Shown here: piece by piece, positions 2,755-54,972 of the stretch
Position numbering within the stretch: position 1 is the first letter of the stretch
Layout of the letters: each line of letters opens with the position of its first letter
Source: a bacterium
GTDB lineage: Bacteria > Patescibacteriota > Doudnabacteria > UBA920
Direction: 5' to 3'
NCBI GenBank assembly: GCA_021791515.1
Contig: JAJYWK010000006.1
Coordinates: 1 to 56,045 of the forward strand
Length of the DNA: 56,045 nucleotides
Program-made: the position numbers and the translations under genes
Notes under the pieces: model-generated
What the model was told of the DNA's origin: nothing
The model's input: only the letters and a program-made list of their open reading frames with translations
Databases searched by the model: none

Positions 2755-3486
2755 CTATATCGTGCTCCAAAAATAATTAAGCATAATATTCATTGTTTCA
2801 AAAATATCCGCACTTTCTATTACTAACCCTAGAGAGTCGTCGCCTTCTTGCGTAATAAAAGCTACTTTGCCGTTATATGCAAACATTTCATTTTTAAATG
2901 GAAAATTTTGTGCGGGTATTAGTTTGGTCTGGCGGAGCGCAAATTTATCTTTTGATTTCAAATCCTGGTAAAAAGGAATATCAGGAGCAATTACTCTAAC
3001 GTGGTTGCCTCTTTTTATTCTTCTGTCCACATATTCTCCGCCCCAGTAGCCCATTATTTTTTCGTCCGGCAATTTTGTGGATAGCACTTCTATATAATCG
3101 GCGCGTTTGGATAGCATATCTTCATAGATTTCTTTTATGCCCTCAATGCCTTTGTATATTCTGACTGACGGCTTCTTCCCGGCGTGGCTTTGAATGGACA
3201 ACAATTGCCCCATAATATTATGTAAAATATTTTCTTTTTGTCTTATCAGCGGGAAAATATTCTGTGGGTCTTCCGCAATATAGATTTTACGTTTGCCTTT
3301 TAAAATGGTTTTTATTAGCCCTTTTTCTTTTAGGCCGTCTATAAGTTCATAAACCGTAGCCCTTTTTAAGTGGGAACCGTTAACCAGCTCCTGCATGGTC
3401 GCGGGGCCGGTTTGGAGCCCGGCCAAATATAAAGCTGACTCTTTTTCACTTAATCCGATTTTTTGAAGGTTTTGTTCTAAATTCAT
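2755..3486 (-). CDS. TrmB-like HTH transcriptional regulator (paralog 1 of 5)
   Basis: The N-terminal winged HTH LGLSEKESALYLAGLQTGPATMQELV...RATVYELIDGLKEKGLI is shared with ORFs 5938-6672, 8276-9040, 31833-32627 and 38447-39190. Confidence 0.7.
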   Translation of the reverse strand: MNLEQNLQKIGLSEKESALYLAGLQTGPATMQELVNGSHLKRATVYELIDGLKEKGLIKTILKGKRKIYIAEDPQNIFPLIRQKENILHNIMGQLLSIQSHAGKKPSVRIYKGIEGIKEIYEDMLSKRADYIEVLSTKLPDEKIMGYWGGEYVDRRIKRGNHVRVIAPDIPFYQDLKSKDKFALRQTKLIPAQNFPFKNEMFAYNGKVAFITQEGDDSLGLVIESADIFETMNIMLNYFWSTI

Positions 3487-3635
3487 AAAATATCGGTAAA
3501 ACTGACGATATTTTTATAATAATATATGCTTATTTTAAAGGCAATTTTTAATATTGTCAATCAAATATATCAAGATTATTGATATATTTTTCCGTTTAGC
3601 TATAATAGCAAGTCAACTCAAAGGAGGGTTGGTTT

Positions 3636-3851
3636 GTGGCTCAAGAGCTAAAGTATAAAGATCTTCAGGAAATCGCTGCGGTCAGTCCGGAGATAACCGG
3701 ACAGCTTTTGGAACTCCAGGAACTTGCGGAAGAGTTGGGGGGCGATCCGGAAGAGTGGATTGCTTTTGCGCTGACAGTAAGTGCAATAGGGCGAGCTTAC
3801 GAACCCAAGCAAGAACAGTCGTGGCTTAACAGGCCATGGATTGTATCGTAA
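3636..3851 (+). CDS. hypothetical small acidic protein
   Basis: 71-aa ORF with a GTG start 8 nt after aaggaggg. It is divergent from TrmB paralog 1, followed by a terminator hairpin, and locally GC-richer by eye. Confidence 0.45.
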   Translation: MAQELKYKDLQEIAAVSPEITGQLLELQELAEELGGDPEEWIAFALTVSAIGRAYEPKQEQSWLNRPWIVS

Positions 3852-3974: not shown

Positions 3975-5903
3975 TTATAAAGTCTTTTGTTTAATCTTCT
4001 CTTCAAAACTCTCCAGTACGTCGCCGACCAAAATTTTCACGTTGGTTTTTAATTTAATGCCGAATTCTTCGCCGGTATTTACGTTCTTGCTGGCCACTTT
4101 GCTTTGTTGAAGTTCCAAAATATCCCCGCGGCCGAGTTCCGCTCCAGCGCGCCAAACCGAAATGTGGCTGTTTCTTTTTAGCTCCCCTTCTTCCACTTTA
4201 CCGCCCACTATCATTTCGCCTTTTTCCGTACGGAAAATGGCCAGGACTTTGGCTTTGCCCAACGAAATTTTTTCCGTTTCCGGAGTGAACATCTTAATTA
4301 CCGCGGAAGTAATGTCTTCCAGTAATTCATAAATAACATCGTAAGAATCAATTACCACTTTTTTTTGCTTGGCCAAATTAACGGCTTTGGGATTAATTTT
4401 TGCCCTAAAGCCAATAACCGAAGCTTTGGAGTTTGAAGCCATTAAAACATCGGATTCGTTTATTTCTCCCACGCCTTCGCTTAAAATGTTAATTCTAACT
4501 TCATCATTTTTTAATTTAGCAATGCTCTGCTTAATGGCTTCCAAAGAGCCGGCCACGTCTGCCTTTAAAATTAAATTCAATGTTTTATTTTCCAAGTCGC
4601 CCATAATTGCCTGTTTGCTCACCAAACGATGGCTTTGATTTTTACGCTGGCTTACAAGAGCAATGTCTTTGGCCATATCTAAAGTTTCTACCACCTGCAA
4701 AATGTCGCCGGCTTGGGGCACTTCGGAAAATCCCGATATCTGCGCCGGCGTGGAAGGCATAGCTTCTTTTAATTTGCGCCCGGTTTCATCTTCCAAAGAG
4801 CGGATGCGGCCAAAAGCCGCGCCAGCCGCAATAATATCGCCCGGCCTAAGCGTGCCGTTTTGTATTACCACTGTGGCCGTGGCGCCTTTGCCCTGGGTCA
4901 TTTTGCTTTCAATAATTGTGCCAATTGTCTGGCCTTGGGGGTTGGCGCGCAGGTTTTCCATTTCCGCGGTAAGCAGAATCATTTCTAACAAATTATCTAT
5001 TCCTTTGTTTTGTTTGGCGGAAATTTCGCAGGCAATGATTTTACCTCCCCACTCTTCAGTTAAAACTCCTTGGCCGGCCAGTTCCTGTTTAACTTTAATT
5101 ACGTTGGCCTCGGGCTTATCTACCTTGTTTATGGCCACAATCATTGGCGTGCTGGTGAATTTGGCACGGTTGATTACTTCCAGGGTCTGCGGCCTTACGC
5201 CGTCGTCCGCGGCCACCACCAAAACAATAATGTCCGTAACATTGGCTCCCCGCGCGCGCATTTCACTAAAGGCTTCGTGGCCAGGGGTGTCCAAAAATGT
5301 GATGGTTTTGCCGTTCTTTTTTACCGTGTAAGCGCCAATATGCTGGGTGATGCCACCGCTTTCGCCTTCGGCAACTTTGGTTTTGCGAATGGTATCAAGC
5401 AGAGTGGTTTTACCATGGTCAACATGGCCCATAATTGTCACAATCGGCGGACGGAGTTTTAAGTTTTCCTCTTTTTCCGCGCTCAAAACTTCCTGCAGGA
5501 AACCCAGGCCAAATTCTTTTTGACTCTGGTCGGCTTCGGTGGAAACATCAAAGTTTAAATCCTGCGCTACAATACTAGCAGTGTCAAAATCCACCTCTTC
5601 GTTAATAGTGGCCATTACGCCGTTTTGTATTAAGCTCTTAATGACATCGGTTACAGGCAGGCCGAGCAGGGCCGCAAAGTCGCGCACTTTTATAAACGAG
5701 GGCAGTTTAACTTTCTTTTTTTCTACCGGTTCGGCCGGCTTGGCCGCAACGGGTTTTACAGTCAATGCTTCGGTAATTTTTTTGGCCAGGAAGTTGTCGA
5801 TTTTATTCGCCCTGGGCGAAATAAAAAAACCTTTCTCGCGGGCGCGGGAGCGGAGTTCCTGGACGGACATATTCAGTTCGGACGAGAGGGAAGAAAGATT
5901 CAT
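3975..5903 (-). CDS. infB: translation initiation factor IF-2
   Basis: 642-aa ORF with GTPase motifs [17 protein letters not shown] and NKVD, plus the IF-2 C-terminal domains. Confidence 0.95.
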
Positions 5904-5937: not shown

Positions 5938-6672
5938 TCAAGCCTTTTCCCAAATCAAATTAAACAAAGAACGCATGGTAGTAGTGATTTCTTTAGAACG
6001 AATAATTACTCCAATGGGTTCGCTGTCTTTGCGATAGAGCGCGAACGATAAATTGTCGCCGTAAATGTAACAATCTAAGGGTATAGGATATAAATTTTCG
6101 TCCAGTAATTTTACTTCGCGTAAGGCATAAGTGTCAGTGGTAAGTTTTATTCGGTTAGACCTGGCTTGCCCGGAAACTAAAATTTTTATAGGGATTTTTC
6201 TTTTGATTCTTTGCGGAATGTAGTAGTTGGAGGAGTGAAATTCAATTTCCGGATGGATTTGTTTTAAACTGACAAACTCCAAAATTGGTTTTTGTTCCTT
6301 TAGGTTGTCGAAATAAAGTTTTTTTATGCCTTCCATGCCTTCATAAAAAATAATTTTTGGTTTATTAGAAGCGGTGGTTAATAGTAAGCGCAATTCCGGA
6401 ATTATGGTTTCCAATTGGTCTATCTCTGATTGCTTTTTATTTAAAAGATTTTCCGGATCTTCGGCAATCAAATATCTTCTTTTGCCCAATATAGTCTCGG
6501 CAATTAAGCCTTGCTTAAGTAGGTTTGGTAAAAGTTTGTACAGCACAGAGCGGTTAACTTTAGCTTTTTCCGCCAAGTGTTTGGGTAAAGATTTTCCTAA
6601 TTCTAAACCAGCTAAATAAATAGCCGACTCCGCTTGGGAAAGCCCTAAATTTTCCAGTAATTCTTGAATCAT
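5938..6672 (-). CDS. TrmB-like HTH transcriptional regulator (paralog 2)
   Basis: LGLSQAESAIYLAGLELGKSL...RSVLYKLLPNLLKQGLI. Length and C-terminal pattern match the other paralogs. Confidence 0.7.
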   Translation of the reverse strand: MIQELLENLGLSQAESAIYLAGLELGKSLPKHLAEKAKVNRSVLYKLLPNLLKQGLIAETILGKRRYLIAEDPENLLNKKQSEIDQLETIIPELRLLLTTASNKPKIIFYEGMEGIKKLYFDNLKEQKPILEFVSLKQIHPEIEFHSSNYYIPQRIKRKIPIKILVSGQARSNRIKLTTDTYALREVKLLDENLYPIPLDCYIYGDNLSFALYRKDSEPIGVIIRSKEITTTMRSLFNLIWEKA

Positions 6673-7668: not shown

Positions 7669-7706
7669 ATGACGGCAAAATATTAAGCATTATATTTTGC
7701 CGTCAT
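7669..7706. terminator. 15-bp perfect inverted repeat, probable bidirectional terminator
   Basis: atgacggcaaaatat-taagcatt-atattttgccgtcat followed by ttttt. It overlaps the brnA stop codon. Confidence 0.55.
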
Positions 7707-7975
7707 TTTTTCCAAACCCCTTCGGCAATATACTGCTTCATTAGGCTTTGGTAGGGCACATCAAGCTTATTGGCTTTAATTTTTACCTGATTGATAATAC
7801 CCACGGGCAAGCGTAGCGAAATCGGTCTGGTGGTAAGCTTTAAATTTGGAAATATGCCGCGTTTGGCTTTTGACCAATCAATGTAATCAGTGGAGTCATG
7901 GGTATCCCAAAATTTCCTGACCTCATCTTCAGTTTTTAGCTCGGGAAGTTTTTTAAAGCGTTTTTTCATATGCAT
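7703..7975 (-). CDS. brnA: BrnA-family antitoxin
   Basis: 90 aa; ...FWDTHDSTDYIDWSKAKRGIFPNLKLTTRPISLRLP...DVPYQSLMKQYIAEG is typical of BrnA-type antitoxins. It overlaps the upstream toxin ORF. Confidence 0.7.
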   Translation of the reverse strand: MHMKKRFKKLPELKTEDEVRKFWDTHDSTDYIDWSKAKRGIFPNLKLTTRPISLRLPVGIINQVKIKANKLDVPYQSLMKQYIAEGVWKK

Positions 7976-8252
7976 TCCTTTCTTTCCGGCTTGCCGGCCT
8001 GGAAGAAATAATTCTAATTTTATTGTCGCGAAGAGTGTAGCAAGAAAATATTAATTTGCCGTTATTGCTTTTGCCTAAAATATTGAATCTTTGTTCAATG
8101 CCGCTATGTTTGATATCAGCCCAAATAAGGTTTAAATTTATAAATACTTCTTCAGCTTCATCGTTGGTGACGCCATGCTTACGAAGGTTTTTGTTTTGAT
8201 TCCCGCTATCCCATTCAAATTGGAGTGGTTGTGGGAGTTCCAAATTTTGCAT
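7953..8252 (-). CDS. brnT: BrnT-family (DUF497) ribonuclease toxin
   Basis: FEWDSGNQNKNLRKHGVTNDEAEEVF...RIISSRPASRKERNAYEK. I trimmed the start to the ATG at 8252 to avoid overlap with the TrmB paralog 3 gene. Confidence 0.7.
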   Translation of the reverse strand: MQNLELPQPLQFEWDSGNQNKNLRKHGVTNDEAEEVFINLNLIWADIKHSGIEQRFNILGKSNNGKLIFSCYTLRDNKIRIISSRPASRKERNAYEKTL

Positions 8253-8275
8253 ATTTATATTGTATATGCGACGCG

Positions 8276-9040
8276 CTACTTTGTCAAGGTTGCTGACAAG
8301 CCCCAAATGGTGTCAAAAATTTTTCTTTCGCTTTCGGCAATGTCCGCGCTTTCAATTATCACCGTAACTAATTCCTTTTTGGAACTGTAAATAGCCACTT
8401 TATTGCCGTAAATCAGTTTGGAAGTATTGTAGATAAAATTTTCCGGCAAATATTTTACTTCGCGCAGGAGTTCGGAGTGGTTGGCCTTTAAAAAAGATTC
8501 GGGCATTTGGGATTTAAAATACAAGGCCTGAAAGCGAATATGGTTTTTTAAGCGAGTGGGGATGTAAAAATTTAAGTCCCATTCTTCGCTAACTACATTA
8601 TGGATTTCGCTGATGGAACCAATGTGTCTGACGGTCGCATTTGGCGTTTTAAGCGAATCTTCCGATGCGACAAAGTATCCTTCCTTGCCTTCGTAGTAAG
8701 TGATTTGCGGGCGACTGTCTTTTTTTTGCGTAAGGCTGTTTAACTGCGGTAAAATGGATTTTAAATCTTCCAGTTCTTTTTGGGTCTTGTTAATTAAAAT
8801 ATCGGGCGAAGTGGCCACGAACTTATGCCGGCCGCGCATTTTAAAACTGCCCATAAGACCCTTTTTTTCTAAAGCCTGGAAAATTACGTAAGCCGAAGTC
8901 CTTTTTATTTGGGCCTCGCGGGAAAGCTCACTCATGCCCGCTTCCCCGAGTTTTAAGCTGGCCAAATACAAAGCTGCTTCCGCGTCTTCCAGGCCATAAG
9001 TTTTTAAGGTTTGTTTAATGTCTTGCATAGCGCGAAGCAC
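8276..9040 (-). CDS. TrmB-like HTH transcriptional regulator (paralog 3)
   Basis: YGLEDAEAALYLASLKLGEAGMSELS...RTSAYVIFQALEKKGLM, with the same architecture as the other paralogs. Confidence 0.7.
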   Translation of the reverse strand: MLRAMQDIKQTLKTYGLEDAEAALYLASLKLGEAGMSELSREAQIKRTSAYVIFQALEKKGLMGSFKMRGRHKFVATSPDILINKTQKELEDLKSILPQLNSLTQKKDSRPQITYYEGKEGYFVASEDSLKTPNATVRHIGSISEIHNVVSEEWDLNFYIPTRLKNHIRFQALYFKSQMPESFLKANHSELLREVKYLPENFIYNTSKLIYGNKVAIYSSKKELVTVIIESADIAESERKIFDTIWGLSATLTK

Positions 9041-14615: not shown

Positions 14616-15056
14616 ATGAAAGCAAATTTTAAATCGGCACTGTTTCTTGTATTAATTGCAATGGTTCTGCCGGAATTATTAACCGGCAGTTCGTCTATAA
14701 GCACATTCTTAAATCCTATTCATCTCATTATTCTTTTTCTGGGATACGGTGTTGCCGTACTTTTGATCAGAGAAATAGCTGTGAGGAATAATTTATCCTC
14801 TGGGGGCATTTTTATTTTAGGACTTGCCTTCGGAGTCTTTAACGAAGGGCTTCTGGCTAAAACTTTAATCCGTGCCAGTGAACTGCCAATCACTCAATAT
14901 AATAATTACGGCTACTTTTTGGGCGTTAGTTTTCCTTTTACTTTTGCCATTAGTTTTTGGCACGCGCTAGCTTCGGTGCTCGTGCCTATTTTGCTGGTAT
15001 ACTGGGTTTATTCTAAAAATAGCAGCCCCTTTTTGATTCATAAATCTATTACTTAA
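14616..15056 (+). CDS. hypothetical integral membrane protein
   Basis: 146-aa ORF with several hydrophobic segments. Confidence 0.5.
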   Translation: MKANFKSALFLVLIAMVLPELLTGSSSISTFLNPIHLIILFLGYGVAVLLIREIAVRNNLSSGGIFILGLAFGVFNEGLLAKTLIRASELPITQYNNYGYFLGVSFPFTFAISFWHALASVLVPILLVYWVYSKNSSPFLIHKSIT

Positions 15057-15095
15057 ACATTAATTCTTGATACAATTTCTTCGGTAAATCAAACT

Positions 15096-15318
15096 TGGTG
15101 GACCTGGGGGGAATCGAACCCCCGCCTCGGCAATAGCGCCCCAGCAGCAAATTCGCTATGCGAGTTGCTACGGGGTAAAAATGCCGCAGTAATATTTACC
15201 CCGTTACTTTTGGTGGACTCACCGGGAATCGGACCCGGGCCTCGGCAATGCGAATGCCGCGTAATACCACTTTACTATGAGCCCAACAAAAGTTACGGGG
15301 CCACTTTACTACAGGCCC
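15096..15318 (-). tRNA. interrupted tRNA-Ala gene (outer gene; inserts at 15139-15179 and 15195-15300)
   Basis: The acceptor halves gggcctg (15312-15318) and caggtcc+a+cca (15096-15106) include a G3:U70 pair. Removing the two CCCC...GGGGTAAA-type inserts gives D arm gtaa-agtggta-ttac, anticodon stem cggca/tgccg, loop ttCGCtat (8 nt), and T arm ggggg-ttcgatt-ccccc. Confidence 0.6.
15211..15284 (-). tRNA. tRNA-Ala(CGC), intact, nested inside the D-loop insert of the outer tRNA-Ala
   Basis: gggctca-ta-gtaa-agtggta-ttac-g-cggca-ttCGCat-tgccg-aggc-ccggg-tccgatt-cccgg-tgagtcc-a-cca, with G3:U70 present. Confidence 0.85.
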
Positions 15319-15407
15319 GTAAAGGATTGCAGATTTATGATTTAGGATTTAAAATATAAGAACTGCTGAATAATTTTAACTTATCGGCTAAGTTTAGTAA
15401 AGACACT

Positions 15408-15908
15408 ATGTTTAAGATAAAAATAATTGCACTCGGAAAATTTAAGGAAAAGGCTTACAGGGAACTTGAGCTTGAGTTTTTAAAGCGTCTGTCCCCTTTT
15501 GCAAAAATTAAAGTAGTGGAACTGCCGGAAATTGGCTATGGGAAAAATCAGGATTTGGAAAGAGTTAAAGAACAGGAGGCGGAAAAAATAATAGCTCAAT
15601 TGTTTACCCGCCAAAGCCTTGGCGTCGGCGGGCCGGAAGGCGCGGTTGTAATTTTAATGGAAGAAAAAGGGACATTAAGAAATTCCAAGGATTTTTCCTT
15701 GTTTTTAGAGCGGGTTGGCGGTTTGGGAAAGGAGCTGGTGTTTGTTTTGGGCAGTGGGATTGGGCTGTCCCATATTTTAAAGCCTTACAGCAACTATTCT
15801 TTATCTCTTTCACCTTTAACCTTTCCGCATAATATGGCGCGGATAATTTTAGAGGAGCAAATTTACCGATCTTGTATGATTTTGGCAGGCAAGGAATATC
15901 ACAAGTAG
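15408..15908 (+). CDS. rlmH: 23S rRNA (pseudouridine1915-N3)-methyltransferase RlmH
   Basis: SPOUT pattern MFKIKIIALGKFKEKAY... FVLGSGIGLS ...LSLSPLTFPHNMARIILEEQIYR. It carries a short hairpin-encoded insert (see findings). Confidence 0.8.
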   Translation: MFKIKIIALGKFKEKAYRELELEFLKRLSPFAKIKVVELPEIGYGKNQDLERVKEQEAEKIIAQLFTRQSLGVGGPEGAVVILMEEKGTLRNSKDFSLFLERVGGLGKELVFVLGSGIGLSHILKPYSNYSLSLSPLTFPHNMARIILEEQIYRSCMILAGKEYHK

Positions 15909-15993
15909 CTACAGAACTACCCGCCCGACTTCGCTACGACGAAGTCGTTGCGGGCGGGCAGAAAAGAGTCACTACAGATGCCTACAGATAACC

Positions 15994-17409
15994 TCACCTA
16001 GCCTCTCCTTTGAAAGGAGAGGAATTTTTTTGATTTGTTTCTGCGGCAATGAGGCCAAGGAGTATCCAAAGTAACATTTGAGTTTGCTGGAGGGTATAAA
16101 AGTAGTGGTCGAATTGCATGAGGACGAGAAAACAAGTAAATAAGCTGATAAGCAATAAGAGGTAAATAGAAAAATCATCCTTGAATTTATAGTATATAGC
16201 TTTTAGTTGGTACAAAAATATCCAGAGCAAAATTAAAGCAAATGGGATGCCGAGTTCAGCCGCCGCGATAATAAAATAGTTGTGCGGTGGCTGTTTTTCC
16301 CATGGCATTAAGGTTTTATTGGAGACCTGTTCCATATGAAGCAGGCCCTCCCCTGCTCCAACGCCAAATAGAGGATGTTGCTCGGCCATTTTTAGTCCCA
16401 TTTGATCATAAAACTTTCTGTCGATAGTAGATTGGTCTGAAAATGTTGCGCGGGTTAAAAGGAAGGGGCGGAAAATGGCAAAGCTGATTAAGATTGACAT
16501 CGCCAAAACCGAAATTGCGAGCCCCGATGATAGTCGGGGCGAAGCAATCTGGTTCGTTGATGAGATTGTTTCGCTGCCCTCACTTACGCTCGGGCCCCTC
16601 GCAATTTCCAATTTGCGATACTTCATCGTACCAAAAAATATAACCAGCCCAACCCCCAAAGCCAAGTATGCTCCACGTGAAAATGCCACAGTTAGTCCTA
16701 AAATATTGAGGAAAATAAGAAAGGAATAGGCTATTTTGGCCTTTTTTTGATTAGAAATCATTAGTAAATAAGCGGCAATAAGCACTCCGGTGACCAAGAA
16801 AGCAGAAAACACGTTAGGGTGAGGAAACGTCCCATAACCACGAATAAAAGTTGTTCCATTTGAAACAATCTTTGCGACTCCAAGCATATTTGGCGCAAGA
16901 TGCGACTCCCCTAGCCTATAAAGTCCCAGAGATGATTGTTTGGCAAATTGGGCCAAAGCAATAATTGATTGAATTCCACAGAACCACGCAAAAATCTTAA
17001 AAAACCAAGTTTTTAAATCAAATTTGCTAAATGCCAGATACGCTGTTCCATATGCAACAATAATAAATTCAAGGAATTTTATAAAATTCCATATATTTAA
17101 GCCAGAAATTGAGTTTTTTGCAAAGAAAAGCGCTAAGATAAGCCAAAATATTAATATCCACAATCTTTTATCCTTAATCCTTGACCAAAAAAGTGTAAAA
17201 TTAAACCATAAAATAAAGAGAAAGGCAAAAAATAATAAAATATCGCTTAAATATAAGGAAAAGCTTGTAAAATCAGAATAATCACCTGTTAGATAGCTTG
17301 AAGCCGTCAAAAAGACGTGTCTTATTGGAAAAAATAGCGATAACAAAAACAAAAAGGTAAAAACTTTAACCCAAATCTCTGAATTGAACTTTTTAAGAAC
17401 ATTTATCAT
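15994..17409 (-). CDS. O-antigen ligase/polymerase (Wzy_C) family membrane protein
   Basis: 471-aa polytopic ORF with AFSRGAYLALGVGLVIFF and a periplasmic-loop pattern typical of the O-antigen ligase family. The 3' end overlaps the hairpin cctctcctt-tga-aaggagagg. Confidence 0.65.
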   Translation of the reverse strand: MINVLKKFNSEIWVKVFTFLFLLSLFFPIRHVFLTASSYLTGDYSDFTSFSLYLSDILLFFAFLFILWFNFTLFWSRIKDKRLWILIFWLILALFFAKNSISGLNIWNFIKFLEFIIVAYGTAYLAFSKFDLKTWFFKIFAWFCGIQSIIALAQFAKQSSLGLYRLGESHLAPNMLGVAKIVSNGTTFIRGYGTFPHPNVFSAFLVTGVLIAAYLLMISNQKKAKIAYSFLIFLNILGLTVAFSRGAYLALGVGLVIFFGTMKYRKLEIARGPSVSEGSETISSTNQIASPRLSSGLAISVLAMSILISFAIFRPFLLTRATFSDQSTIDRKFYDQMGLKMAEQHPLFGVGAGEGLLHMEQVSNKTLMPWEKQPPHNYFIIAAAELGIPFALILLWIFLYQLKAIYYKFKDDFSIYLLLLISLFTCFLVLMQFDHYFYTLQQTQMLLWILLGLIAAETNQKNSSPFKGEAR

Positions 17410-17458
17410 AATCTAATTTTAACATCTTTATTAATTTGGTATAATTGACTAGTCCTGT

Positions 17459-17682
17459 GCCCTCGCCCCGGTAGCAATCCGCCTTCGGCGGACGTTACGG
17501 GGTAAATAGCTCAACTTGCCCCGTCACATATGTTGCTTTCGTAGCTCAATGGATAGAGCAAATCCGTCCTAAGGATGAGATGTAGGTTCGATTCCTACCG
17601 AGAGCACCATATGTGACGGGGTGGATTAGAGCAGGTCCGTCCTAAGGACAAGATGGGGGTCCGATTCCCTCCGAGGGCACCA
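17459..17682 (+). tRNA. interrupted tRNA-Arg(CCU) gene (outer gene; inserts at 17466-17506 and 17515-17621)
   Basis: gccctcg[ins]ta-gctc-aa[ins]tggatta-gagc-a-ggtcc-gtCCTaa-ggaca-agat-ggggg-tccgatt-ccctc-cgagggc-a-cca. This is a full cloverleaf after removal of the two inserts. Confidence 0.65.
17535..17609 (+). tRNA. tRNA-Arg(CCU), intact, nested inside the D-loop insert of the outer tRNA-Arg
   Basis: gctttcg-ta-gctc-aatggata-gagc-a-aatcc-gtCCTaa-ggatg-agat-gtagg-ttcgatt-cctac-cgagagc-a-cca. Confidence 0.85.
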
Positions 17683-17811
17683 AAAATTTGTAAAAAATAA
17701 AATTAAACAAAAAATATACTTGTCCCGTTAGATTTAAGTGTAAAAATTATAAAGGTCGTTTAAATAATTTTGGGACAGTATAAATAAGAATAAAAATTAA
17801 AATCTAATGGG

Positions 17812-18162
17812 ATGTTGGATCCAGAACTGCACAATTATCTTTCGGGCATCAATCAAAATTTGGTTGATTTAAAAAATAAAAAAACCCCGGGCATTTGGCG
17901 GTCATTTTTTAATGGAATGTTTTCAGCTTTGGGCTACTTAGCGGGGCTGGCTTTGGTGCTTTTGATTTTGGGTTGGGTATTGAATAAAATGGGGTTAACC
18001 GCCGCCTTTCAGCAACAGATGAGGGATTACCAATCTTTTTTTAACGAAGCAAAAAAAGTCATGAGCGCAGGGGGACAGAGCGGGCAGGGGAGCAGCCAGA
18101 CAAAAAACGGAGAGACGATCATAACTTTGCCGGATGGCAGGCAGGTAAAAGTAATTCAGTAA
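17812..18162 (+). CDS. hypothetical membrane-anchored protein
   Basis: 116-aa ORF with one central TM segment and a Gly/Ser/Gln-rich tail. Confidence 0.5.
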   Translation: MLDPELHNYLSGINQNLVDLKNKKTPGIWRSFFNGMFSALGYLAGLALVLLILGWVLNKMGLTAAFQQQMRDYQSFFNEAKKVMSAGGQSGQGSSQTKNGETIITLPDGRQVKVIQ

Positions 18163-18216
18163 AGCAGTATTGAAAAATATATTAAAATAAGATAGAATAT
18201 CAAGGCAATTATTTTG

Positions 18217-18290
18217 GGGCCTGTAGTATAATGGTAATACGCGACCATGGCATGGTTGAGTTAGGAGTCCGATTCTCCTCAGGTCCACCA
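18217..18290 (+). tRNA. tRNA-Ala(GGC)
   Basis: gggcctg-ta-gtat-aatggta-atac-g-cgacc-atGGCat-ggttg-agtt-aggag-tccgatt-ctcct-caggtcc-a-cca. Its acceptor stem is identical to that of the interrupted Ala gene at 15096-15318. Confidence 0.85.
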
Positions 18291-18354
18291 CAAAAAAGAT
18301 CTTCTGTTTGAAGGTCTTTTTTGTCAGGAAGAGTTATATTTGCCTCAGAAATAC

Positions 18355-18389
18355 AAAAACAGCCGCTCTTTAACAGAGCGGCTGTTTTT
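18355..18389. terminator. bidirectional intrinsic terminator
   Basis: aaaaa-cagccgctct-ttaac-agagcggctg-ttttt. Confidence 0.7.
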
Positions 18390-18720
18390 GGTCGGGATGC
18401 CCCAGTAGCATAACCTTCGGTTAGCTACGGGGTAAACAGGGAATTGAACCCTGTCTTCATCCGCCTTAGGCGGACTTCGGCGGACAGGCGCACCTTTACC
18501 CCGCACCAATTTTTTACAAATGTTTGCTTTTGGTCGGGATGCAGGGAATCGAACCCTGTCTCCACGCACCCGAAGCGTGTGTACTACCGGTATACTACAT
18601 CCCGGTCAAAAGAAAACAGTTATAATTTTTTAAGATAATAATTGGTGCGGGGCGTGGCGCGCGTACTACCGGTATATTTACCCCGTAGTCAGCTTGCTGT
18701 ACCACTGGGGCTACATCCCG
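18389..18720 (-). tRNA. interrupted tRNA-Pro(CGG) gene (outer gene; four inserts: 18400-18436, 18458-18486, 18495-18652, 18677-18710)
   Basis: After removal of the inserts the minus strand reads cgggatg-ta-gtat-accggta-gtac-g-cgcgc-caCGGgt-gcgcc-aaga-caggg-ttcaatt-ccctg-catcccg-a-cca. That is 74 nt, the same length and acceptor/D arm as the nested gene. Confidence 0.6.
18531..18604 (-). tRNA. tRNA-Pro(CGG), intact, nested inside the anticodon-loop insert of the outer tRNA-Pro
   Basis: cgggatg-ta-gtat-accggta-gtac-a-cacgc-ttCGGgt-gcgtg-gaga-caggg-ttcgatt-ccctg-catcccg-a-cca. Confidence 0.85.
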
Positions 18721-18921
18721 TCGTCGCAGCTTGCTTCGAGCTTTCGGCTTTTACTAAAAGTAAAAGCCTTTCGCTCTGCGCAGCTACTCCTTTGTCCCAA
18801 AAATTCGTGCTCGCCGTCCAATGGGCGTCTGCGCACCAAATCTTTGGGAACCCTAGTCTAACTGAAAAATCCTATATATTATATCCTTTTAAAATCCTTT
18901 TATCAATGGTAAAATTAGCGC

Positions 18922-26431: not shown

Positions 26432-26529
26432 TGTCATCCTGAATTTATTTCAGGATCCATAAAATAGATTCCGGAACCCCAGTAGTAGAACCTTCGGTTC
26501 ACTACGGGGCAGGCAAGTCCGGAATGACA
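26432..26529. repeat. tgtcat...atgaca element with a nested CCCC...GGGG hairpin (26477-26509)
   Basis: The backbone matches 19709-19769, but the tccgga/tccgga hairpin loop is occupied by ccccagtagtagaaccttcggttcactacgggg. Confidence 0.75.
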
Positions 26530-31698: not shown

Positions 31699-31832
31699 GG
31701 TTCCTCCTCTGGGACAATACAGAATATCACCAGCCGCATCGTTTATAAATTAGTATTTATTTACATTTGGCTTATTTGACAGAAATTCTGTTAGTAGTAT
31801 AATTAATTGTCAATGACAAATTGACAAACTAT

Positions 31833-32627
31833 ATGCTACAAAGCGAAATAATATTAAAAAAGCTCGGGCTTTCTGAGCACGAAGCCAAAGTTTATCTCTT
31901 GGGCATTAAGTTGGGCCCGAGTCTTGCCAGTGAAATATCAAAACAGTCGGGTTTGGGCCGGACGCTGGTTTATCATCTGCTGGGACAGTTAAAAAGCAAA
32001 GGTTTGGTTAGCGAACAGGGTAGCGGCAACGGTAAAAAGTTTTTTATGGAACCGCCGGAGAGGCTGTTAAATATTGTGGAAAGAAAACAAAAAGAGTTGG
32101 AGGGTATGGCAGTTCAAGTTACGCAAATTACCAAAGAATTAAAGTCATCCGCTATCTTTTCCGGCATACCGCAAATCCGCGTTTATGAAGGCACGGAAGG
32201 CATAAAGAATTTTGCCCAGGACACCTTGGCTGTAAAAGGCACGCTGACTAAAGCCATCGTTCCCATCGATAATTTATTAAAGATGCTGGATAAGTTTTTT
32301 TTGCGCTATTGGTTTTTAGGGCGAAATAAGCAAAATATTATGGGCAAAACTTTGTTTACCGGCACTCCGCGCAAACCATTCTCTATTGATCAGATAAAAC
32401 AATTGCTTAACACCCCACACGCCAGCAGTTTTTTGCATCAATGGAAAAAAAGCCCAAGGGAATTTGTGTTCCAGAATACCGTAGTAATTTTTGGTAATAA
32501 AGTCGCGGTAGTTTCGTCTCCTGAAAAACCCTCGGTGTTTGTTATTGATTCCGGCGAGTTTGCCGCCACTATGAGTATTTTTTTTGATGATTTATGGAAA
32601 CGAAGCGCAGTTTTGAAACAGAAATAA
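31833..32627 (+). CDS. TrmB-like HTH transcriptional regulator (paralog 4)
   Basis: LGLSEHEAKVYLLGIKLGPSLASEIS...RTLVYHLLGQLKSKGLV. I moved the start to the ATG at 31833. The 8-bp inverted repeat ttgtcaat/attgacaa lies just upstream. Confidence 0.7.
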   Translation: MLQSEIILKKLGLSEHEAKVYLLGIKLGPSLASEISKQSGLGRTLVYHLLGQLKSKGLVSEQGSGNGKKFFMEPPERLLNIVERKQKELEGMAVQVTQITKELKSSAIFSGIPQIRVYEGTEGIKNFAQDTLAVKGTLTKAIVPIDNLLKMLDKFFLRYWFLGRNKQNIMGKTLFTGTPRKPFSIDQIKQLLNTPHASSFLHQWKKSPREFVFQNTVVIFGNKVAVVSSPEKPSVFVIDSGEFAATMSIFFDDLWKRSAVLKQK

Positions 32628-38446: not shown

Positions 38447-39190
38447 ATGAAAGAATTATCGGAAAGTTTGGAAAAGTTGGGTTGGCATAACAAAAAAGCC
38501 AAAGTTTATTTGGCGCTTTTGCAATTGGGTGAAGGTAGTGTTATCGATATTGCTTATAAGTCTGGCCTAAAACGAACCACTGTTTACAACATTCTTCCTG
38601 AAATGGTTCGCGAAGGAATTGTGACGACAGGCATTAAACATCAAAAGAAGTATTATTATGTAGAGAATCCGAAAAATCTCAAGCAGGATTTTCAGGATAA
38701 AATAAACTATATTGAGAAAATACTGCCAGAGCTTTCCGCTATCCATAACATTATTCCCTATAAGCCGAAAATTTCTTATTATGAGGGCGTGGGTGGAATG
38801 AAAGAGTTGTATTTAGATACGTTAGACAGCTTACATGGTGGCGATACCATTTTAAGTTATACGGGTTTTAGGGATTATTATCAGTTTATGCCAAGGGAAT
38901 ATATGGACTGGTATGTGCAGGAAAGAGTTAACCGTAAAATTAGAATAAAAATGATCGTTCCAGATTTTCCGACGACTAGGGAAATTTTACCACAAGCTCA
39001 AAGTACTTTGCGCGAAATTAAAGTTATTCCGGGCGACACTTGGCAGTTTTCCGCAGATACGGAAATTTATGCTAATAAGGTTGCGCTTATCTCCCACACG
39101 GAAAATTTTATTGGTGTAATCATTGAAAGTAAAGAAATTAACCAGATGCAGAGGATGGCTTTTGAAATTATGTGGAATGCGCTAAAATAA
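38447..39190 (+). CDS. TrmB-like HTH transcriptional regulator (paralog 5)
   Basis: LGWHNKKAKVYLALLQLGEGSVIDIA...RTTVYNILPEMVREGIV. The inverted repeat atatgtct-n8-agacatat overlaps the start region. Confidence 0.7.
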   Translation: MKELSESLEKLGWHNKKAKVYLALLQLGEGSVIDIAYKSGLKRTTVYNILPEMVREGIVTTGIKHQKKYYYVENPKNLKQDFQDKINYIEKILPELSAIHNIIPYKPKISYYEGVGGMKELYLDTLDSLHGGDTILSYTGFRDYYQFMPREYMDWYVQERVNRKIRIKMIVPDFPTTREILPQAQSTLREIKVIPGDTWQFSADTEIYANKVALISHTENFIGVIIESKEINQMQRMAFEIMWNALK

Positions 39191-47498: not shown

Positions 47499-47957
47499 AT
47501 GTTTTTAAAGAAACAAAAATTAGCAATTATTTTACTGGTAGCGTTTTTGGCAATTCCGGTTTTTGCCCACGCTTTTAATATTACCGATCCTTTGGTCCGT
47601 TGCGGCCGGCAAGGGCAAAATCCGTGCACCATAGTAGACTTTTTCGCGCAAGTCGCTTATTTAACCAACTGGTTAATTGCCATTGCTGTCCTATTTTTTG
47701 TCCAGCGCATTGTCAATCACGGTTTTTGGCTAGTTATCACGCTTGGCAATGAAGAGGTCATCACCAAGCACAGAGCCGGTCTAATGAACGCGGTGTTGGG
47801 GTTTATTTTGGTTTTAATGGCATTTATGATGGTAAATACGGCGGTAAATTTTCTTTTGGGCGTTGGCCAGTGCAAAACCAAGCTGGACTTAACCAATCCG
47901 TTAAATTACGTAATTATTAATGATAAATTGGTGCAGTGCCGTGGAGGAGCGCAATAA
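47499..47957 (+). CDS. pilin-like two-TM secreted membrane protein, paralog 1 (divergent)
   Basis: Signal peptide, then GFWLVITLGNEEVITKHRAGLMNAVLGFILVLMAF, which is related to the GGFWYVTSAGNEEQAEKGR module of the next four genes. Confidence 0.6.
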   Translation: MFLKKQKLAIILLVAFLAIPVFAHAFNITDPLVRCGRQGQNPCTIVDFFAQVAYLTNWLIAIAVLFFVQRIVNHGFWLVITLGNEEVITKHRAGLMNAVLGFILVLMAFMMVNTAVNFLLGVGQCKTKLDLTNPLNYVIINDKLVQCRGGAQ

Positions 47958-48164
47958 TTAAATTTTAGGGCTTCCGCGCCGCCGCTTTTTGGGCGGGCAA
48001 AGCCCGTCCCACAAAAGCGGCTCTGGCCAATTTCTTCGTTATTTTCCTGCGGTATTTGTCGGCGTAGCTCGGCTACGCCTCCAAATACCCTCGGAAAATG
48101 CCTAGAACTTGGCTCAGTGCGTAAACCCTAAATTAAAAGAGTTAAATATAAATTTAGTCGCATT

Positions 48165-49037
48165 ATGGAAAAAATCAGACAGCCGAAATTTTTAATTTGG
48201 ACTTTAAGCTTGGCAAGTTTGTTTATAATGCTGGATATGTTTTCTCCTTCATCGGCTTTAGCACAAACCAGCGGTAGATGCGACGAGCTTTATAAACAGT
48301 TTAATTTTGTCAGCTATTTTAATGGACAGTCGACTACCACAAATGCTGTGGCTGGTTTGCCGCGGTTTTGCAGCGCTCCGCAAATAATTAATTTTGTTAT
48401 CAAACTAATTTTATATTTTGCCGGCTCTTTTGCCGTATTGTTTATTATGGTTGGCGGATTTTTATATGTGACTTCCGCGGGCAACGAAGAGCAGGCGGAA
48501 AAAGGGCGGAAAATTTTGATTAATGCCGTTATTGGTTTAGTGGTGATTATTATGGCTTTTGCAATTGTGCAGATTATCGGCGGGCTGCTCACTTCAGGTG
48601 CCAATGGCAGTCTAACCACAACCACGCAGAATCCTCCTAATCCAAATTCAAACCCCAACCCAAATCCCAATCCCAATCCCGCGCCAGCTGGTTCAGTAAG
48701 TGTAAGCGGGCCAAGTTCCATTCAGGTGGATCAGGTTTATACCTTAACAGCCACTGTTCCGGTCAGTTTAATTTCCTGCGGTATAAACCAAAATTCCGCG
48801 ACTATGGCCGTTACTTCAGGAGGCGGCGCGCCAAAGACATTTGCCGCGGACGGATTTGTTATGTCCGGGCCGGGAAACAGCAATGCCGTCTTTACTTTTT
48901 CTAATCGAACGCCGGAAAGTCTGGGTTATGTAGTGCCCACCGGGCAGACTAAGACAATGCATGTGTCAATATCCGTGTGCTTGGTTCAGCAATATCAGAC
49001 TGATGTTGCGGTAAAGCCCTCTTTATCCGTTCGTTAA
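48165..49037 (+). CDS. pilin-like protein, paralog 2, with an Asn/Pro linker and a C-terminal extension
   Basis: GGFLYVTSAGNEEQAEKGRKILINAVIGLVVIIMAFAIV, then NPPNPNSNPNPNPNPNPAP and a domain of about 110 aa. Confidence 0.65.
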   Translation: MEKIRQPKFLIWTLSLASLFIMLDMFSPSSALAQTSGRCDELYKQFNFVSYFNGQSTTTNAVAGLPRFCSAPQIINFVIKLILYFAGSFAVLFIMVGGFLYVTSAGNEEQAEKGRKILINAVIGLVVIIMAFAIVQIIGGLLTSGANGSLTTTTQNPPNPNSNPNPNPNPNPAPAGSVSVSGPSSIQVDQVYTLTATVPVSLISCGINQNSATMAVTSGGGAPKTFAADGFVMSGPGNSNAVFTFSNRTPESLGYVVPTGQTKTMHVSISVCLVQQYQTDVAVKPSLSVR

Positions 49038-49350
49038 AGTTAGATTTTAAAAAGCACAAGATTTTAAAAAGCTTGCTGATTATGGTATAATTATTTTAAG
49101 TTTAATATGTCCTTAACCTTGCCCTCTCCTTACTCCTTATAAAGGAGCATAGAGGGAGAGGGAAAGGAATTAAAAGAGCCTATCTGAAAATTTTTTATTG
49201 CCTATAATCTCAGACTTTCGGCTGTAAACCCTTTCTCGAAGCTTGGCGTATCAGTAAACGATACGCCTCACTCCTGCGGCAGGGTTTTCGCTCGAAAGTC
49301 CGAGATTTACGACTAATAATAAATTTTCAAATAGGCTCTCGGGAGAGGGG

Positions 49351-49770
49351 GTGAACAGCTTGAAACAAATTATCAAAAAAATCAACTATTTAAAAATCGC
49401 CGAACTGCTGCTCGTCACCGCATTGGTCATTTTTCCATTAGTCGCCCCGGAATTAGGTTTTGCGCAATTAAATAGAAACTTGCCCTGTGATTCTTCCACC
49501 GGCCTTAATTGCAGCGCCGGCACCAGCGTTAATTCCCTTATCAGAACCGTGATTAACTGGCTCTTGGGCATTGCTTTTGGTGTTGCGGTGTTGTTCTTAA
49601 TTATTGGCGGCTTCTGGTACATTACTTCTGCCGGCAATGAAGAAACCGCTGAAAAAGGCAAAGGCACGGCCATTAACGCGATTATTGGTATTGTAATTAT
49701 CATTTTGTCTTACGTAATTATCAACGTAGTGTCCAATTTGGTGACCAATACCGGCGGCGGAGGTCAGTAA
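49351..49770 (+). CDS. pilin-like protein, paralog 3
   Basis: GGFWYITSAGNEETAEKGKGTAINAIIGIVIIILSYVII. The start could instead be the TTG at 49360. Confidence 0.65.
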   Translation: MNSLKQIIKKINYLKIAELLLVTALVIFPLVAPELGFAQLNRNLPCDSSTGLNCSAGTSVNSLIRTVINWLLGIAFGVAVLFLIIGGFWYITSAGNEETAEKGKGTAINAIIGIVIIILSYVIINVVSNLVTNTGGGGQ

Positions 49771-50035
49771 TAAAGGTTCCTCGGAGTAGAACTCCGAGGA
49801 ATTGCACCCAAGGAGCGGGCTGTATTTCGCAGCAGAGCTGCGAGGTATTCAAACCTGTATTAAGACTCCTTAGGCTCGCCCAAACCAATCATCAGATGAT
49901 TGGTTTGGCTCGCTCTACGTCGCTAATAAAAAATGAGAGCCTCAAGTCGCGGCAGATTTTGCCGCTTTGCTTGGGGCTTCTGCCCGGCTCCTGGATCTTT
50001 TCCAGGGGCGAGGCAGAAAAATTAATTTTTAACAA

Positions 50036-50431
50036 ATGAAAAAAAATATTTTGAAAAAAATTTTTGGCGCGGGAGTGGCCGCCGGCCTGCTTGGGTTGCC
50101 GTTATTGGTTTTGGCCCAGGGCGGCGTGCAGGGCGGTTTGAATAATTTAAGAGTATTGTTTCCGGGCACTGGAATTATCGGTTCCTCCAGCTTAGCCGGA
50201 CCCAATGGTTTGATATTCAACATTATTAACGCTCTGTTGCTGATTGTCGGCGCTATTGCGGTCTTGTTTGTGATTATTGGCGGTTTTTGGTACGTGACTT
50301 CCGCGGGCAACGAAGAGCAGGCGGAAAAAGGCCGCACTACCGTGGTAAACTCCATAATCGGCATAGTGATTGTAATTTTGTCTTACGTGGTTATAAACGT
50401 GATTGTGAATTTGGTGACTTATGGGTTTTAA
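50036..50431 (+). CDS. pilin-like protein, paralog 4
   Basis: Signal peptide; GGFWYVTSAGNEEQAEKGRTTVVNSIIGIVIVILSYVVI. Confidence 0.7.
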   Translation: MKKNILKKIFGAGVAAGLLGLPLLVLAQGGVQGGLNNLRVLFPGTGIIGSSSLAGPNGLIFNIINALLLIVGAIAVLFVIIGGFWYVTSAGNEEQAEKGRTTVVNSIIGIVIVILSYVVINVIVNLVTYGF

Positions 50432-50445
50432 CTAAACCGAATAGC

Positions 50446-51522: not shown

Positions 51523-51856
51523 TTTAGAATCTATTTTAAAAATAATTTGTAGGCGAAATTTGAGGATTTTGAGCAGATTGGATCTTAACAAATTTTGACG
51601 TTTAGCCAAAGCTAAGCGGAAGAATTTTTCAGACCAAGATGCCAAAATACCGCAAATTGCAGCCCGAAGGATTTTTAAAATAGGTTCTTAGGCGCAATCT
51701 AATACCCCCGTCTTACTTGAATAGTAGGGCGGGGCTTGTTATTTGGTTTGAAAAATGCTAAAATTTTTGAGCCGAGCAACCAGCTCGAGTGGTGCAATTG
51801 GCCTCAGTTGAATCATTGCTTCGCAATATTCAACGGGGCAAGCGGTCTTGGCATCT

Positions 51857-51943
51857 GCCTTGGTGGCGGAATTGGTATACGCACTAGGTTTAGGACCTAG
51901 CGAGGGTAACCTCTTGAGAGTTCGAGTCTCTCCCAAGGCACCA
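51857..51943 (+). tRNA. tRNA-Leu(UAG), type II
   Basis: gccttgg-tg-gcg-gaattggtata-cgc-a-ctagg-ttTAGga-cctag-(variable arm)-gagag-ttcgagt-ctctc-ccaaggc-a-cca. It is flanked by the 10-bp inverted repeat acggggcaag / cttgccccgt. Confidence 0.85.
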
Positions 51944-52067
51944 GGCAATGGTTTACGTATTTGGTTCAACCTTGCCCCGTAGGGACGCCTGGCGTCTCCT
52001 TCGGGGTCCCATCTCGAGCACCATAAAAAGAGAAAGATTTTTAATCGCTCATCAGAGGTAAAATTAT

Positions 52068-54896: not shown

Positions 54897-54972
54897 TAAG
54901 AATTAATTCAGAATTTAGAATGGAGAATGCAGAAATTGCTGCATTTTGAATTCTGAATTCTGCATTCAAGAC

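Follow-up and report, generated by a model that had tools for sequence, protein, structure and literature searches.

A hairpin cassette carrying a complete tRNA gene lies inside, and probably replaces, a resident tRNA-Ala(CGC) gene in a Doudnabacteria genome

We analyzed a 56,045-nucleotide stretch of DNA (contig JAJYWK010000006.1 of assembly GCA_021791515.1; the whole stretch is called the window here) from a bacterium of the Doudnabacteria, one of the lineages of the Candidate Phyla Radiation (CPR, or Patescibacteria). The minus strand of positions 15096 to 15318 holds a tRNA-Ala(CGC) gene that is broken by two inserts, one of 106 nucleotides (nt) in the D-loop and one of 41 nt in the anticodon loop, and the larger insert contains a second, intact tRNA-Ala(CGC). 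We read this locus as a mobile DNA cassette that inserted into, and replaced, the resident tRNA-Ala(CGC) gene, which makes the outer gene a pseudogene of very recent origin, and we give this reading a probability of roughly 0.78.

Followed along the minus strand from 15318 to 15096, the locus falls into five pieces: an 18-nt outer segment (GGGCCTGTAGTAAAGTGG), the 106-nt insert, a 15-nt outer segment (TATTACTGCGGCATT), the 41-nt insert, and a 43-nt outer segment (CGCTATTGCCGAGGCGGGGGTTCGATTCCCCCCAGGTCCACCA). The first outer segment (15301-15318) supplies the 5' strands of the acceptor and D stems and the first part of the D-loop. The middle segment (15180-15194, TATTAC-T-GCGGCATT) supplies the end of the D-loop, the 3' strand of the D stem, an extra T at 15188, the 5' strand of the anticodon stem, and U32-U33. 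The last segment (15096-15138) supplies the anticodon CGC, an extra T at 15135, the 3' strand of the anticodon stem, the variable loop, the T arm, the 3' strand of the acceptor stem, and the terminal ACCA. In the outer acceptor stem, GGGCCTG (15312-15318) pairs with CAGGTCC (15100-15106), which is followed by A-CCA, and the G3:U70 pair is included.

The 106-nt insert (15195-15300, minus strand) is delimited by its inverted repeat and by alignment to empty sites in relatives. It is a cassette made of a 5' arm, CCCCGTAACTTTT (15288-15300), a GTT spacer (15285-15287), the inner tRNA-Ala(CGC) (15211-15284, minus strand), a 3' arm, AAAGTAACGGGG (15199-15210), and a TAAA tail (15195-15198). The arms pair as a 13-bp helix in which a single A·A mismatch occurs and which draws on the last A of the CCA end. 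The inner tRNA, which we presume to be the functional copy, was recognized by ARAGORN and scored 62.3 bits against RF00005; it has the G3:U70 pair and a T-loop reading TCCGATT. The 41-nt insert (15139-15179, plus strand) lies between U33 and C34, antisense to the outer tRNA, and is a cargo-less hairpin (CCCCAGCAGCAAATTCGCTATGCGAGTTGCTACGGGG followed by TAAA) that matched the covariance model R1 with 49.5 bits (E = 4.5e-14). Folding of all 223 nt gave nested helices at -106.4 kcal/mol, with a z-score of -6.2 against shuffled sequences. An earlier description made from the letters alone (the sequence-only reading) had reported the split gene with its coordinates and acceptor stem, the common CCCC...GGGG plus TAAA ends of the two oppositely oriented inserts, and the one-mismatch helix around an intact, co-oriented tRNA-Ala(CGC), and all of this was borne out when we re-read the sequence.

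In its native state the outer gene scored only 17.8 bits with Infernal against RF00005, under the gathering score of 29, and within 15096-15318 both ARAGORN and Rfam recognized the inner tRNA only. We judged the outer tRNA spliced in silico by ARAGORN and by the orthologous intact genes. Removal of both inserts leaves 76 nt, for which ARAGORN drew a cloverleaf with an 8-nt anticodon loop under the label 'tRNA-?(Ala|Ser)(cgct)'. Because of the extra T at 15188, the D stem and the anticodon stem are separated by two nucleotides, near position 26. The two single-nucleotide insertions in the outer gene are disabling.

We compared the locus with six relatives fetched through RlmH at 76-80% identity (loci L028, L029, L150, L151, L152, and L153). 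The proteins closest to the window's own RlmH come from CPR bacteria, and one of these carries the name Candidatus Doudnabacteria. Five of the six relatives (RlmH 77-80% identical) have an uninterrupted tRNA-Ala(CGC) at the syntenic site just upstream of rlmH, and the fetched locus of the sixth, L152, has no tRNA-Ala(CGC). The gene is identical across all five (gggcctgtagtaaagtggtattacgcggcattcgcattgccgaggcgggggttcgattccccccaggtccacca), and its nt 1-18 are identical to the 15301-15318 segment of the window. Taken together, the outer segments match it at 74 of 74 positions, the only additions being the two single T's at 15188 and 15135. The inner tRNA-Ala matches it at only 63 of 74 positions (15% divergent), with differences confined to the acceptor stem and T arm, where the stem changes are compensatory, plus one T-loop base. 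Alignment to the empty site showed no target duplication and no loss of outer nucleotides at either insert, and the 8-kb loci of the six relatives contain no hairpin end of the RCGGGG-plus-TAAA or CAAG type.

Because the outer gene is uninterrupted at the syntenic site in five relatives, the two inserts are recent, precise DNA insertions. The identities of 74/74 for the outer copy and 63/74 for the inner one show that the outer gene is the vertical ortholog, recently broken, and that the inner tRNA is foreign. The outer stems are still intact because the insertions are recent and there has been no time for substitutions: relative to its orthologs, the outer gene has no substitutions but already has two 1-nt insertions (the 8-nt loop and the extra nucleotide near position 26). 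These comparisons changed several points of the sequence-only reading. Its restored cloverleaf with an 8-nt anticodon loop stands, but it had overlooked the extra T at 15188. It was right that the outer stems are complementary, but not that this is unexpected for a decaying pseudogene, since recency explains it and two disabling insertions are present. Infernal scores separated the weak outer gene from the strong inner one, and the alignment of orthologs, which it had proposed as a test for compensatory substitutions in the outer stems, gave an uninterrupted gene in five relatives and no substitutions at all in the outer segments.

The same arrangement recurs within the window. A second nested locus (17459-17682, plus strand; supported by ARAGORN, Rfam, and R1) has an outer tRNA-Arg(CCT) with a 41-nt hairpin between nt 7 and 8 (17466-17506, 41.6 bits with R1) and a cassette (17515-17621) that has a CTTG tail at its 5' side and arms CCCCGTCACATA and TATGTGACGGGG around an inner tRNA-Arg(CCT) (17535-17609, plus strand). 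A third (18389-18720, minus strand; same three lines of support) has an outer tRNA-Pro(CGG) with hairpins after nt 10 (18677-18710, minus strand, 60 bits with R1) and at the T-stem/acceptor junction (18400-18436, plus strand, 47.4 bits), as well as a further degenerate hairpin at about 18456-18486. The cassette of this locus (18495-18652, arms CCCCGCACCAATT and AATTGGTGCGGGG plus TAAA) lies inside the outer anticodon and encloses an inner tRNA-Pro(CGG) (18531-18604, minus strand); the cassette of locus L147 has the same arms and the same anticodon position. The relatives have an uninterrupted tRNA-Arg(CCT) in six of six cases and an intact tRNA-Pro(CGG) in three of six (L150, L152, and L153), with the gene order of the window. 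A probable fourth locus (51783-52023, plus strand), read by eye, consists of an intact tRNA-Leu(TAG) (51857-51943, plus strand) in a badly decayed outer tRNA-Leu (GCTCGAG...CTCGAGCACCA), flanked by two inverted, CAAG-tailed hairpins at about 51802-51842 (plus strand) and 51971-52006 (minus strand), the latter a weak R1 match of 8.6 bits. In all, three, and probably four, of the window's eight tRNA genes are nested in such outer copies, and the other four have no flanks of the hairpin or cassette type.

Cassettes of this design also occur in other genomes. In metagenomes we looked for tRNA 3' ends with RCGGGGTAAA no more than 30 nt downstream, which gave at least 120 loci. Among the matches listed, ARAGORN placed a tRNA ending at the CCA in 51, and 19 of these 51 have a complementary 5' arm just upstream, versus about 1.5 expected by chance; the 19 correspond to 15 distinct cassette candidates, 12 of them true and three false on inspection. 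Beyond the window there are thus at least 14 cassette loci, namely, L001 (cargo Leu(GAG)), L013 (cargo Pro(GGG)), and 12 or more metagenome loci whose cargo is a Thr, Arg, or Pro tRNA. Every true cassette has as its host a decayed tRNA gene of the same amino acid specificity, and the two anticodons agree in all cases in which that of the outer copy is still legible. The cargo/host pairs are Thr(GGT)/Thr(GGT), Thr(CGT)/Thr(CGT), Arg(TCT)/Arg(TCT), Pro(CGG)/Pro(CGG), Leu(GAG)/Leu(GAG), and Pro(GGG)/tRNA-Pro.

The design of the cassettes is stereotyped. The arms are about 12 bp long, start with CCCCG, and end with CGGGG; their sequence differs between cassettes, and the pairing is always kept. 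A spacer of 3-8 nt stands on the 5' side, the 3' arm directly follows the CCA end in most, and a TAAA tail closes the unit. The total length is 104-171 nt, with a cluster at 104-112 nt. The insertion points are in the D-loop, at positions 7/8, in the anticodon, in the variable loop, and in the T stem. Outer copies at these other loci are heavily decayed, and at L145 removal of the cassette alone gives back a tRNA-Thr(CGT). The IMG/VR viral contigs contained 15 matches to the cassette pattern, none of them true (no tRNA or no 5' arm). At L035, L062, L070, and L072, which have Thr(GGT) or Arg(TCT) cassettes, the hexamer TGCCGC stands right after TAAA, where the 3' strand of the outer D stem (TAGAGC) is expected; it may be a longer element tail in that subfamily or a shared lesion.

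The cargo-less hairpins form a family with the same ends. These are CCCC-stem-loop-stem-GGGG plus a TAAA or CAAG tail, with termini that can be written CCCC and GGGGTAAA. A pattern scan (CCCCRGYAGC-N(8-38)-GYTACGGGGTAAA) over one genome per species from 185,579 species found 25 loci, nearly all of them in CPR bacteria (Parcu-, Sacchari-, Doudna-, Moranii-, Vogel-, Magasanikii-, Sungii-, and Buchananbacteria) and four binned under other taxa. The consensus is CCCC-(A/G)-GTAGC-A-[variable stem-loop]-GCTAC-GGGG-TAAA, in which the nearly invariant GTAGC sits within the stem after CCCC(A/G) and pairs with GCTAC. The distal stem, which the pattern leaves unconstrained, covaries: 97.6% of cells are paired, six pairs have double changes, and 0 of 500 shuffles did as well. 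The covariance model R1 found 31 copies in the 25 scan loci and five in the window, four inside outer tRNAs and one intergenic (CCCCAGTAGTAGAACCTTCGGTTCACTACGGGG, 26477-26509, plus strand, 42.9 bits), which lacks the TAAA tail and lies within a larger palindrome. Rfam gave no family match for hairpins or cassettes at the gathering threshold or at E <= 10, and the hairpin pattern had 0 matches in IMG/VR viral contigs.

The hairpins are associated with broken tRNA genes. When hairpins were removed and their flanks joined, the flanks matched a tRNA in 12 of 35 cases, versus 6 of 1,000 random controls, and both orientations relative to the host tRNA are about equally frequent. The hairpins at tRNA sites lie in a decayed copy beside or around an intact tRNA of the same kind (for example, L001, L003, L004, L009, L011, L013, L017, and L022). 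The exception is L015, also from Doudnabacteria, where a similar 41-nt hairpin occupies the same U33/C34 position in the same orientation in a badly decayed tRNA-Ala(CGC) that has no intact tRNA-Ala(CGC) nearby. Removal of a single hairpin restored a detectable tRNA in 0 of 33 cases. The hairpins interrupt no open reading frame (ORF), as their removal never restored a long one. The base 5' of the element is G in about 80-85% of copies, with no fixed tetranucleotide.

Several further features of the hairpins are recorded here. The apical module TCCGCC...GGCGGA recurs in hairpins of different subfamilies (window 18456-18486, L124, L147, and L005) and also in tail-less degenerate hairpin copies inside outer tRNAs. 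An identical 34-nt hairpin, CCCCAGTAGCAGAGCAAGCTCGCTACGGGGTAAA, occurs in three lineages (L016 1517-1550, L023 474-507, and L024 2561-2594). In L016 and L023 it has the same position, about 15 nt past the stop codon of a conserved gene ending ...AKYENV, and the L024 copy has only the left flank in common with them. The recurrent position suggests a conserved function or an insertion hot spot. One copy, at L008 1646-1708, lies between 13-nt direct repeats (cttacctcaatac), the other copies being without target duplication. Inserts of a second palindromic family, CCTGCCTGCCGGCAGGCAGGG, were seen in L004 (about 1100-1125), L067, L083, L023, and L147; they occupy D-loops of decayed tRNA copies, where they follow GGTA, and also other noncoding sites.

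The data show the direction of insertion (from the empty sites of the relatives), the membership of the inserts in a family, the recurrence over loci and lineages, and the decay of outer copies. We propose that a hairpin element with arms CCCCG... and ...CGGGG followed by TAAA, enclosing a complete foreign tRNA-Ala(CGC), entered the D-loop of the resident gene and that a cargo-less member of the same hairpin family entered the anticodon loop in the opposite orientation. Because the elements occur in both orientations, leave no target duplication, have conserved ends with covarying arms, and are spread over distant lineages, we infer that the unit moves as DNA. Its movement might resemble the single-strand hairpin transposition of repetitive extragenic palindromes (REPs) with their REP-associated tyrosine transposases (RAYTs) or of elements of the insertion sequence (IS) type IS200/IS605. 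The inner tRNA would then take over and would probably be transcribed from the resident promoter, for which a consensus scan offers the promoter-like site TTTACT-17-TAAAAT (15373-15401, minus strand), about 55 nt upstream of the outer 5' end. RNase P and 3' trimming would probably free the inner tRNA from the transcript, and the leader/trailer helix may be cut by RNase III, which is encoded in the window at 54946-55665. The resident gene then decays and gathers cargo-less hairpins.

The match between cargo and target could arise in two ways. It may reflect selection, such that a cassette survives only if it supplies the tRNA that it destroys, the tRNA genes being single copy, as they are in CPR genomes. 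Alternatively, insertion may be directed by homology between cargo and target. Under selection, the transition would be buffered for many of the affected tRNAs (anticodons CGC, CGG, CGT, CCT, GAG, and GGG), which read codons that another isoacceptor can probably cover.

Several observations weigh against a mobile cassette that replaced the resident gene. The outer gene has no substitutions, so by sequence alone selection could still act on it. The fetched loci do not include a donor lineage for the inner tRNA-Ala, and we saw no filled/empty polymorphism within one population, the fetched contigs of the same organism being identical. No transposase or recombinase is linked to the elements: the window, with about 55 ORFs, encodes no Y1/HUH transposase, integrase, or GIY-YIG protein; no candidate was enriched among the 112 ORFs located up to 1 kb from elements; and no autonomous element with the same ends was found within 6 kb. 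A cassette model also does not account for how the tRNA arrived in the loop of the hairpin.

The census of 112 ORFs contained one IS200 TnpA (Y1_Tnp, in L118) and one RtcB (in L072). The gene for the former (L118 12097-12528, minus strand) encodes an IS200-type Y1 transposase and lies by a cluster of tRNA-Ala(GGC), tRNA-Ala(CGC), and nested tRNA-Arg(CCT); the transposase's own flanking hairpins are not of the CCCC/GGGG type. The gene for the latter (L072 848-2305, minus strand; Pfam E = 1.4e-168), an RNA ligase, is separated by about 320 nt from a cassette with a nested tRNA-Arg(TCT). An ORF between two inverted hairpins in L012 was considered as a transposase and rejected, as it encodes a glycosyl-hydrolase-like protein.

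We also observed small genes of the GIY-YIG nuclease family (83-112 amino acids) close to tRNA genes in the relatives, directly adjoining them in several (L028 3380-3631, L029 3462-3713, L150 2368-2628, L151 3342-3680, L153 3181-3432, and L152 6606-6866), and also at L001 (about 3590-3825) and L015 (about 4345-4600). In five relatives the gene is close to the intact tRNA-Ala(CGC), which separates it from rlmH, and there is none at this place in the window. A phmmer search gave only four matches over all loci, and the family was not enriched in the 112-ORF census. The proximity could be an association of the free-standing homing endonuclease kind or a coincidence.

The explanation that competes best with a mobile cassette, although we consider it unlikely, is that the nested arrangement arose locally by break repair or recombination, with the hairpin family being only a REP-like passenger. 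For example, a hairpin in a tRNA gene could break at its loop, and repair could capture a tRNA-Ala fragment from the DNA of another CPR bacterium. The failure to find a transposase would fit such an origin, as would the RecA encoded in the window, the intact tRNAs that have leader/trailer helices without CCCC/GGGG ends (L009, L004, L023, and L024), and the partial tRNA duplicates that lie beside, rather than around, intact tRNAs (L001, L003, L017, and L023). However, local repair does not predict a stereotyped cassette whose termini and tail recur in unrelated lineages and around different tRNAs, nor an insertion so clean that outer nucleotides are neither lost nor duplicated. The inner tRNA-Ala differs by 15% from a tRNA that does not vary among five relatives, and so it came from outside along with its arms.

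The sequence-only reading had implied a living multi-intron or split tRNA, with archaeal tRNAs processed at bulge-helix-bulge (BHB) motifs as the closest parallel. The outer gene would then be functional: the inserts would be removed from RNA by an unknown endonuclease or by RNase P/Z, and the exons, held together by the 13-bp helix, would be ligated, for instance by RtcB, to give a second tRNA-Ala. All four outer stems are still complementary, a leader/trailer helix could hold the halves together as in the split tRNAs of Nanoarchaeum, the RtcB gene of L072 lies near a nested tRNA (in one metagenome contig), and archaeal tRNA-Trp introns can nest a functional small RNA (PMC4090602). Most of the evidence from our analysis points the other way, and we regard splicing as very improbable. 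Splicing would leave a tRNA with 8 nt in its anticodon loop and one nucleotide too many near position 26, the gene is uninterrupted in the five relatives, outer copies elsewhere are grossly decayed, and the occurrence of the hairpins in both orientations fits DNA insertion better than a transcript-level signal. The window encodes neither EndA nor RtcB among its about 55 ORFs. Splicing is also not needed, because all such loci that we examined, L015 excepted, have an intact tRNA of the same kind.

We also inspected the junctions for a BHB motif, which places each exon-intron junction in a 3-nt bulge, with a 4-bp helix between the two bulges (PMC4090602). With the junctions of both inserts fixed by the orthologous tRNA, no 4-bp helix was found at either junction pair in either register (intron nt 2-5 with 3' exon nt 2-5, or 5' exon nt -6 to -3 with intron nt -6 to -3). 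The CCCC/GGGG helix lies wholly within the insert, flush with one junction and 4 nt off the other. Archaeal multi-intron, split, and permuted tRNAs resemble the present case in having several short inserts at noncanonical positions of one tRNA gene, and archaeal tRNA inserts themselves behave as mobile sequences, having spread among tRNA genes by intron transposition in the Thermoproteales (PMC10714607). Archaeal introns, however, are cut from RNA at the BHB by EndA, and their host tRNA is functional and usually the sole copy, whereas the window belongs to a bacterium in which there is no BHB, inserts have both orientations, and the host gene, which decays, has a substitute copy provided for it. 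We do not class the locus as a BHB intron or split tRNA, as excision gives no canonical tRNA and the inserts have no fixed orientation relative to the transcript. Archaeal intron transposition (PMC10714607) and the small RNAs in tRNA introns (PMC4090602) are the nearest conceptual parallels to a mobile tRNA cassette, but they operate at the RNA level.

An assembly artefact, a chimera, or a chance resemblance is of negligible probability: a metagenome assembly, as used here, can go wrong at tRNA repeats, but the same protein and neighborhood are found on six contigs from different samples and assemblers, the two that we fetched being 100% identical to the window, the architecture recurs in dozens of unrelated contigs and at three other window tRNAs, and the fold is far more stable than its shuffles.

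We next consider the known classes of element to which the hairpins and cassettes might be assigned. Group I introns are ribozymes of about 200-300 nt with a conserved core, and they occur in the anticodon loops of bacterial tRNA genes. They were rejected here, as positions 15000-18800 gave no RF00028 match at E <= 10 and the inserts are only 41 and 106 nt long. Elements that target tRNA genes through the tyrosine integrases of phages or of integrative and conjugative elements resemble the cassette in taking a tRNA gene as the target and in keeping its function through element-borne tRNA sequence. They are kilobases long, encode an integrase, restore the 3' part of the tRNA only, and leave a direct repeat, whereas the cassette is a 106-nt unit with a whole tRNA in the D-loop; with no integrase in the window and no direct repeat bounding the insert, we rejected this class as well. 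The core sites of integron attC sites read RYYYAAC ... GTTRRRY, to which the hairpin ends CCCCRGTAGC and GCTACGGGG do not conform, and the window encodes no IntI, which excluded an integron cassette. IS200/IS605-type elements share the absence of target duplication at the inserts, but the 5' flank of the hairpins is G in most copies rather than a fixed tetranucleotide, and no TnpA is linked.

REP and REPIN elements are mobilized by RAYTs, which are HUH Y1 transposases. To our knowledge, REPs do not carry a gene in their loop or home into tRNA genes. They are otherwise close to the hairpin family, which likewise consists of short imperfect palindromes that are dispersed in noncoding DNA in both orientations with no target site duplication and that sometimes have conserved positions downstream of genes. 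REPs, including the GTAG-headed SMAG repeats of Stenotrophomonas, are short (33-46 nt), GC-rich imperfect palindromes with GTAG(C) near the 5' foot (PMC3184786). The GTAGC of the hairpin family differs in lying within the stem, not in a single-stranded head as in classical REPs, and the family has a CCCC/GGGG clamp and a TAAA or CAAG tail of its own. No RAYT was found next to any hairpin copy among the window ORFs and the 112 neighboring ORFs. Because no RAYT is linked and the GTAG motif is within the stem, the hairpins cannot be filed under REP/RAYT. MITEs (miniature inverted-repeat transposable elements) resemble the cassettes in being nonautonomous, bounded by inverted repeats, about 100-170 nt long, and present in many copies and lineages. 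They differ from them in that the cassettes show no target site duplication against a known empty allele, have no parent insertion sequence with the same ends, and carry as cargo a tRNA that matches the disrupted target. We ruled out a MITE in the strict sense, since inverted arms are present but no target bases are duplicated at either insert. The hairpins behave functionally like miniature elements of the REP or MITE type, yet they fit neither class fully.

The coding content of the window is bacterial and includes MurA, Mur ligases, RlmH, a bactofilin, FtsK, RecA, and FtsH. Five paralogous genes for TrmB-family regulators are present (2755-3486, 5938-6672, 8276-9040, 31821-32627, and 38447-39190), together with a run of genes resembling type IV secretion system pilins (47499-51522) and a BrnT/CopG toxin-antitoxin pair (7703-8306). 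Position 55 of tRNA is almost universally U (pseudouridine 55), and several apparently functional tRNAs of this lineage have C at this position in a T-loop reading TCCGATT. This T-loop is found in the window at 15233-15239 (inner tRNA-Ala), 18264-18270 (tRNA-Ala GGC), and 17660-17666 (outer tRNA-Arg) and also in L028 and L147.

tRNA genes are usually held to be among the most stable, vertically inherited parts of bacterial genomes. In this 56-kb window, three, and probably four, of eight tRNA genes appear to have been overwritten by foreign, hairpin-borne copies, and the same design is found across many CPR lineages. We found no account in the literature of tRNA-carrying hairpin cassettes or of tRNA genes nested in others of the same kind in bacteria. 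The phenomenon is real, general in CPR bacteria, and apparently undescribed, a miniature hairpin element with a new cargo and a new relation to its target. These results also remove, as wrong in our judgment, the tempting conclusion that a bacterium splices its tRNAs in the archaeal manner. We suggest tentatively, at slightly less than even odds, that CPR bacteria harbor an undescribed class of miniature mobile elements, about 105-170 nt long, which carry nothing but a tRNA gene and specifically overwrite the gene for the same tRNA, possibly through homology, causing a continual horizontal turnover of tRNA genes. Cargo-less hairpins of the family would afterward invade the dead copies. If this is true, the cassettes would be a source of systematic annotation errors in CPR genomes (pseudo-tRNAs, apparent 'introns', and fragmented tRNA matches) and would offer a concrete DNA hairpin substrate for finding the responsible enzyme. 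They would also represent a new kind of gene-carrying miniature mobile element and a route to horizontal tRNA replacement in organisms with single-copy tRNA sets.

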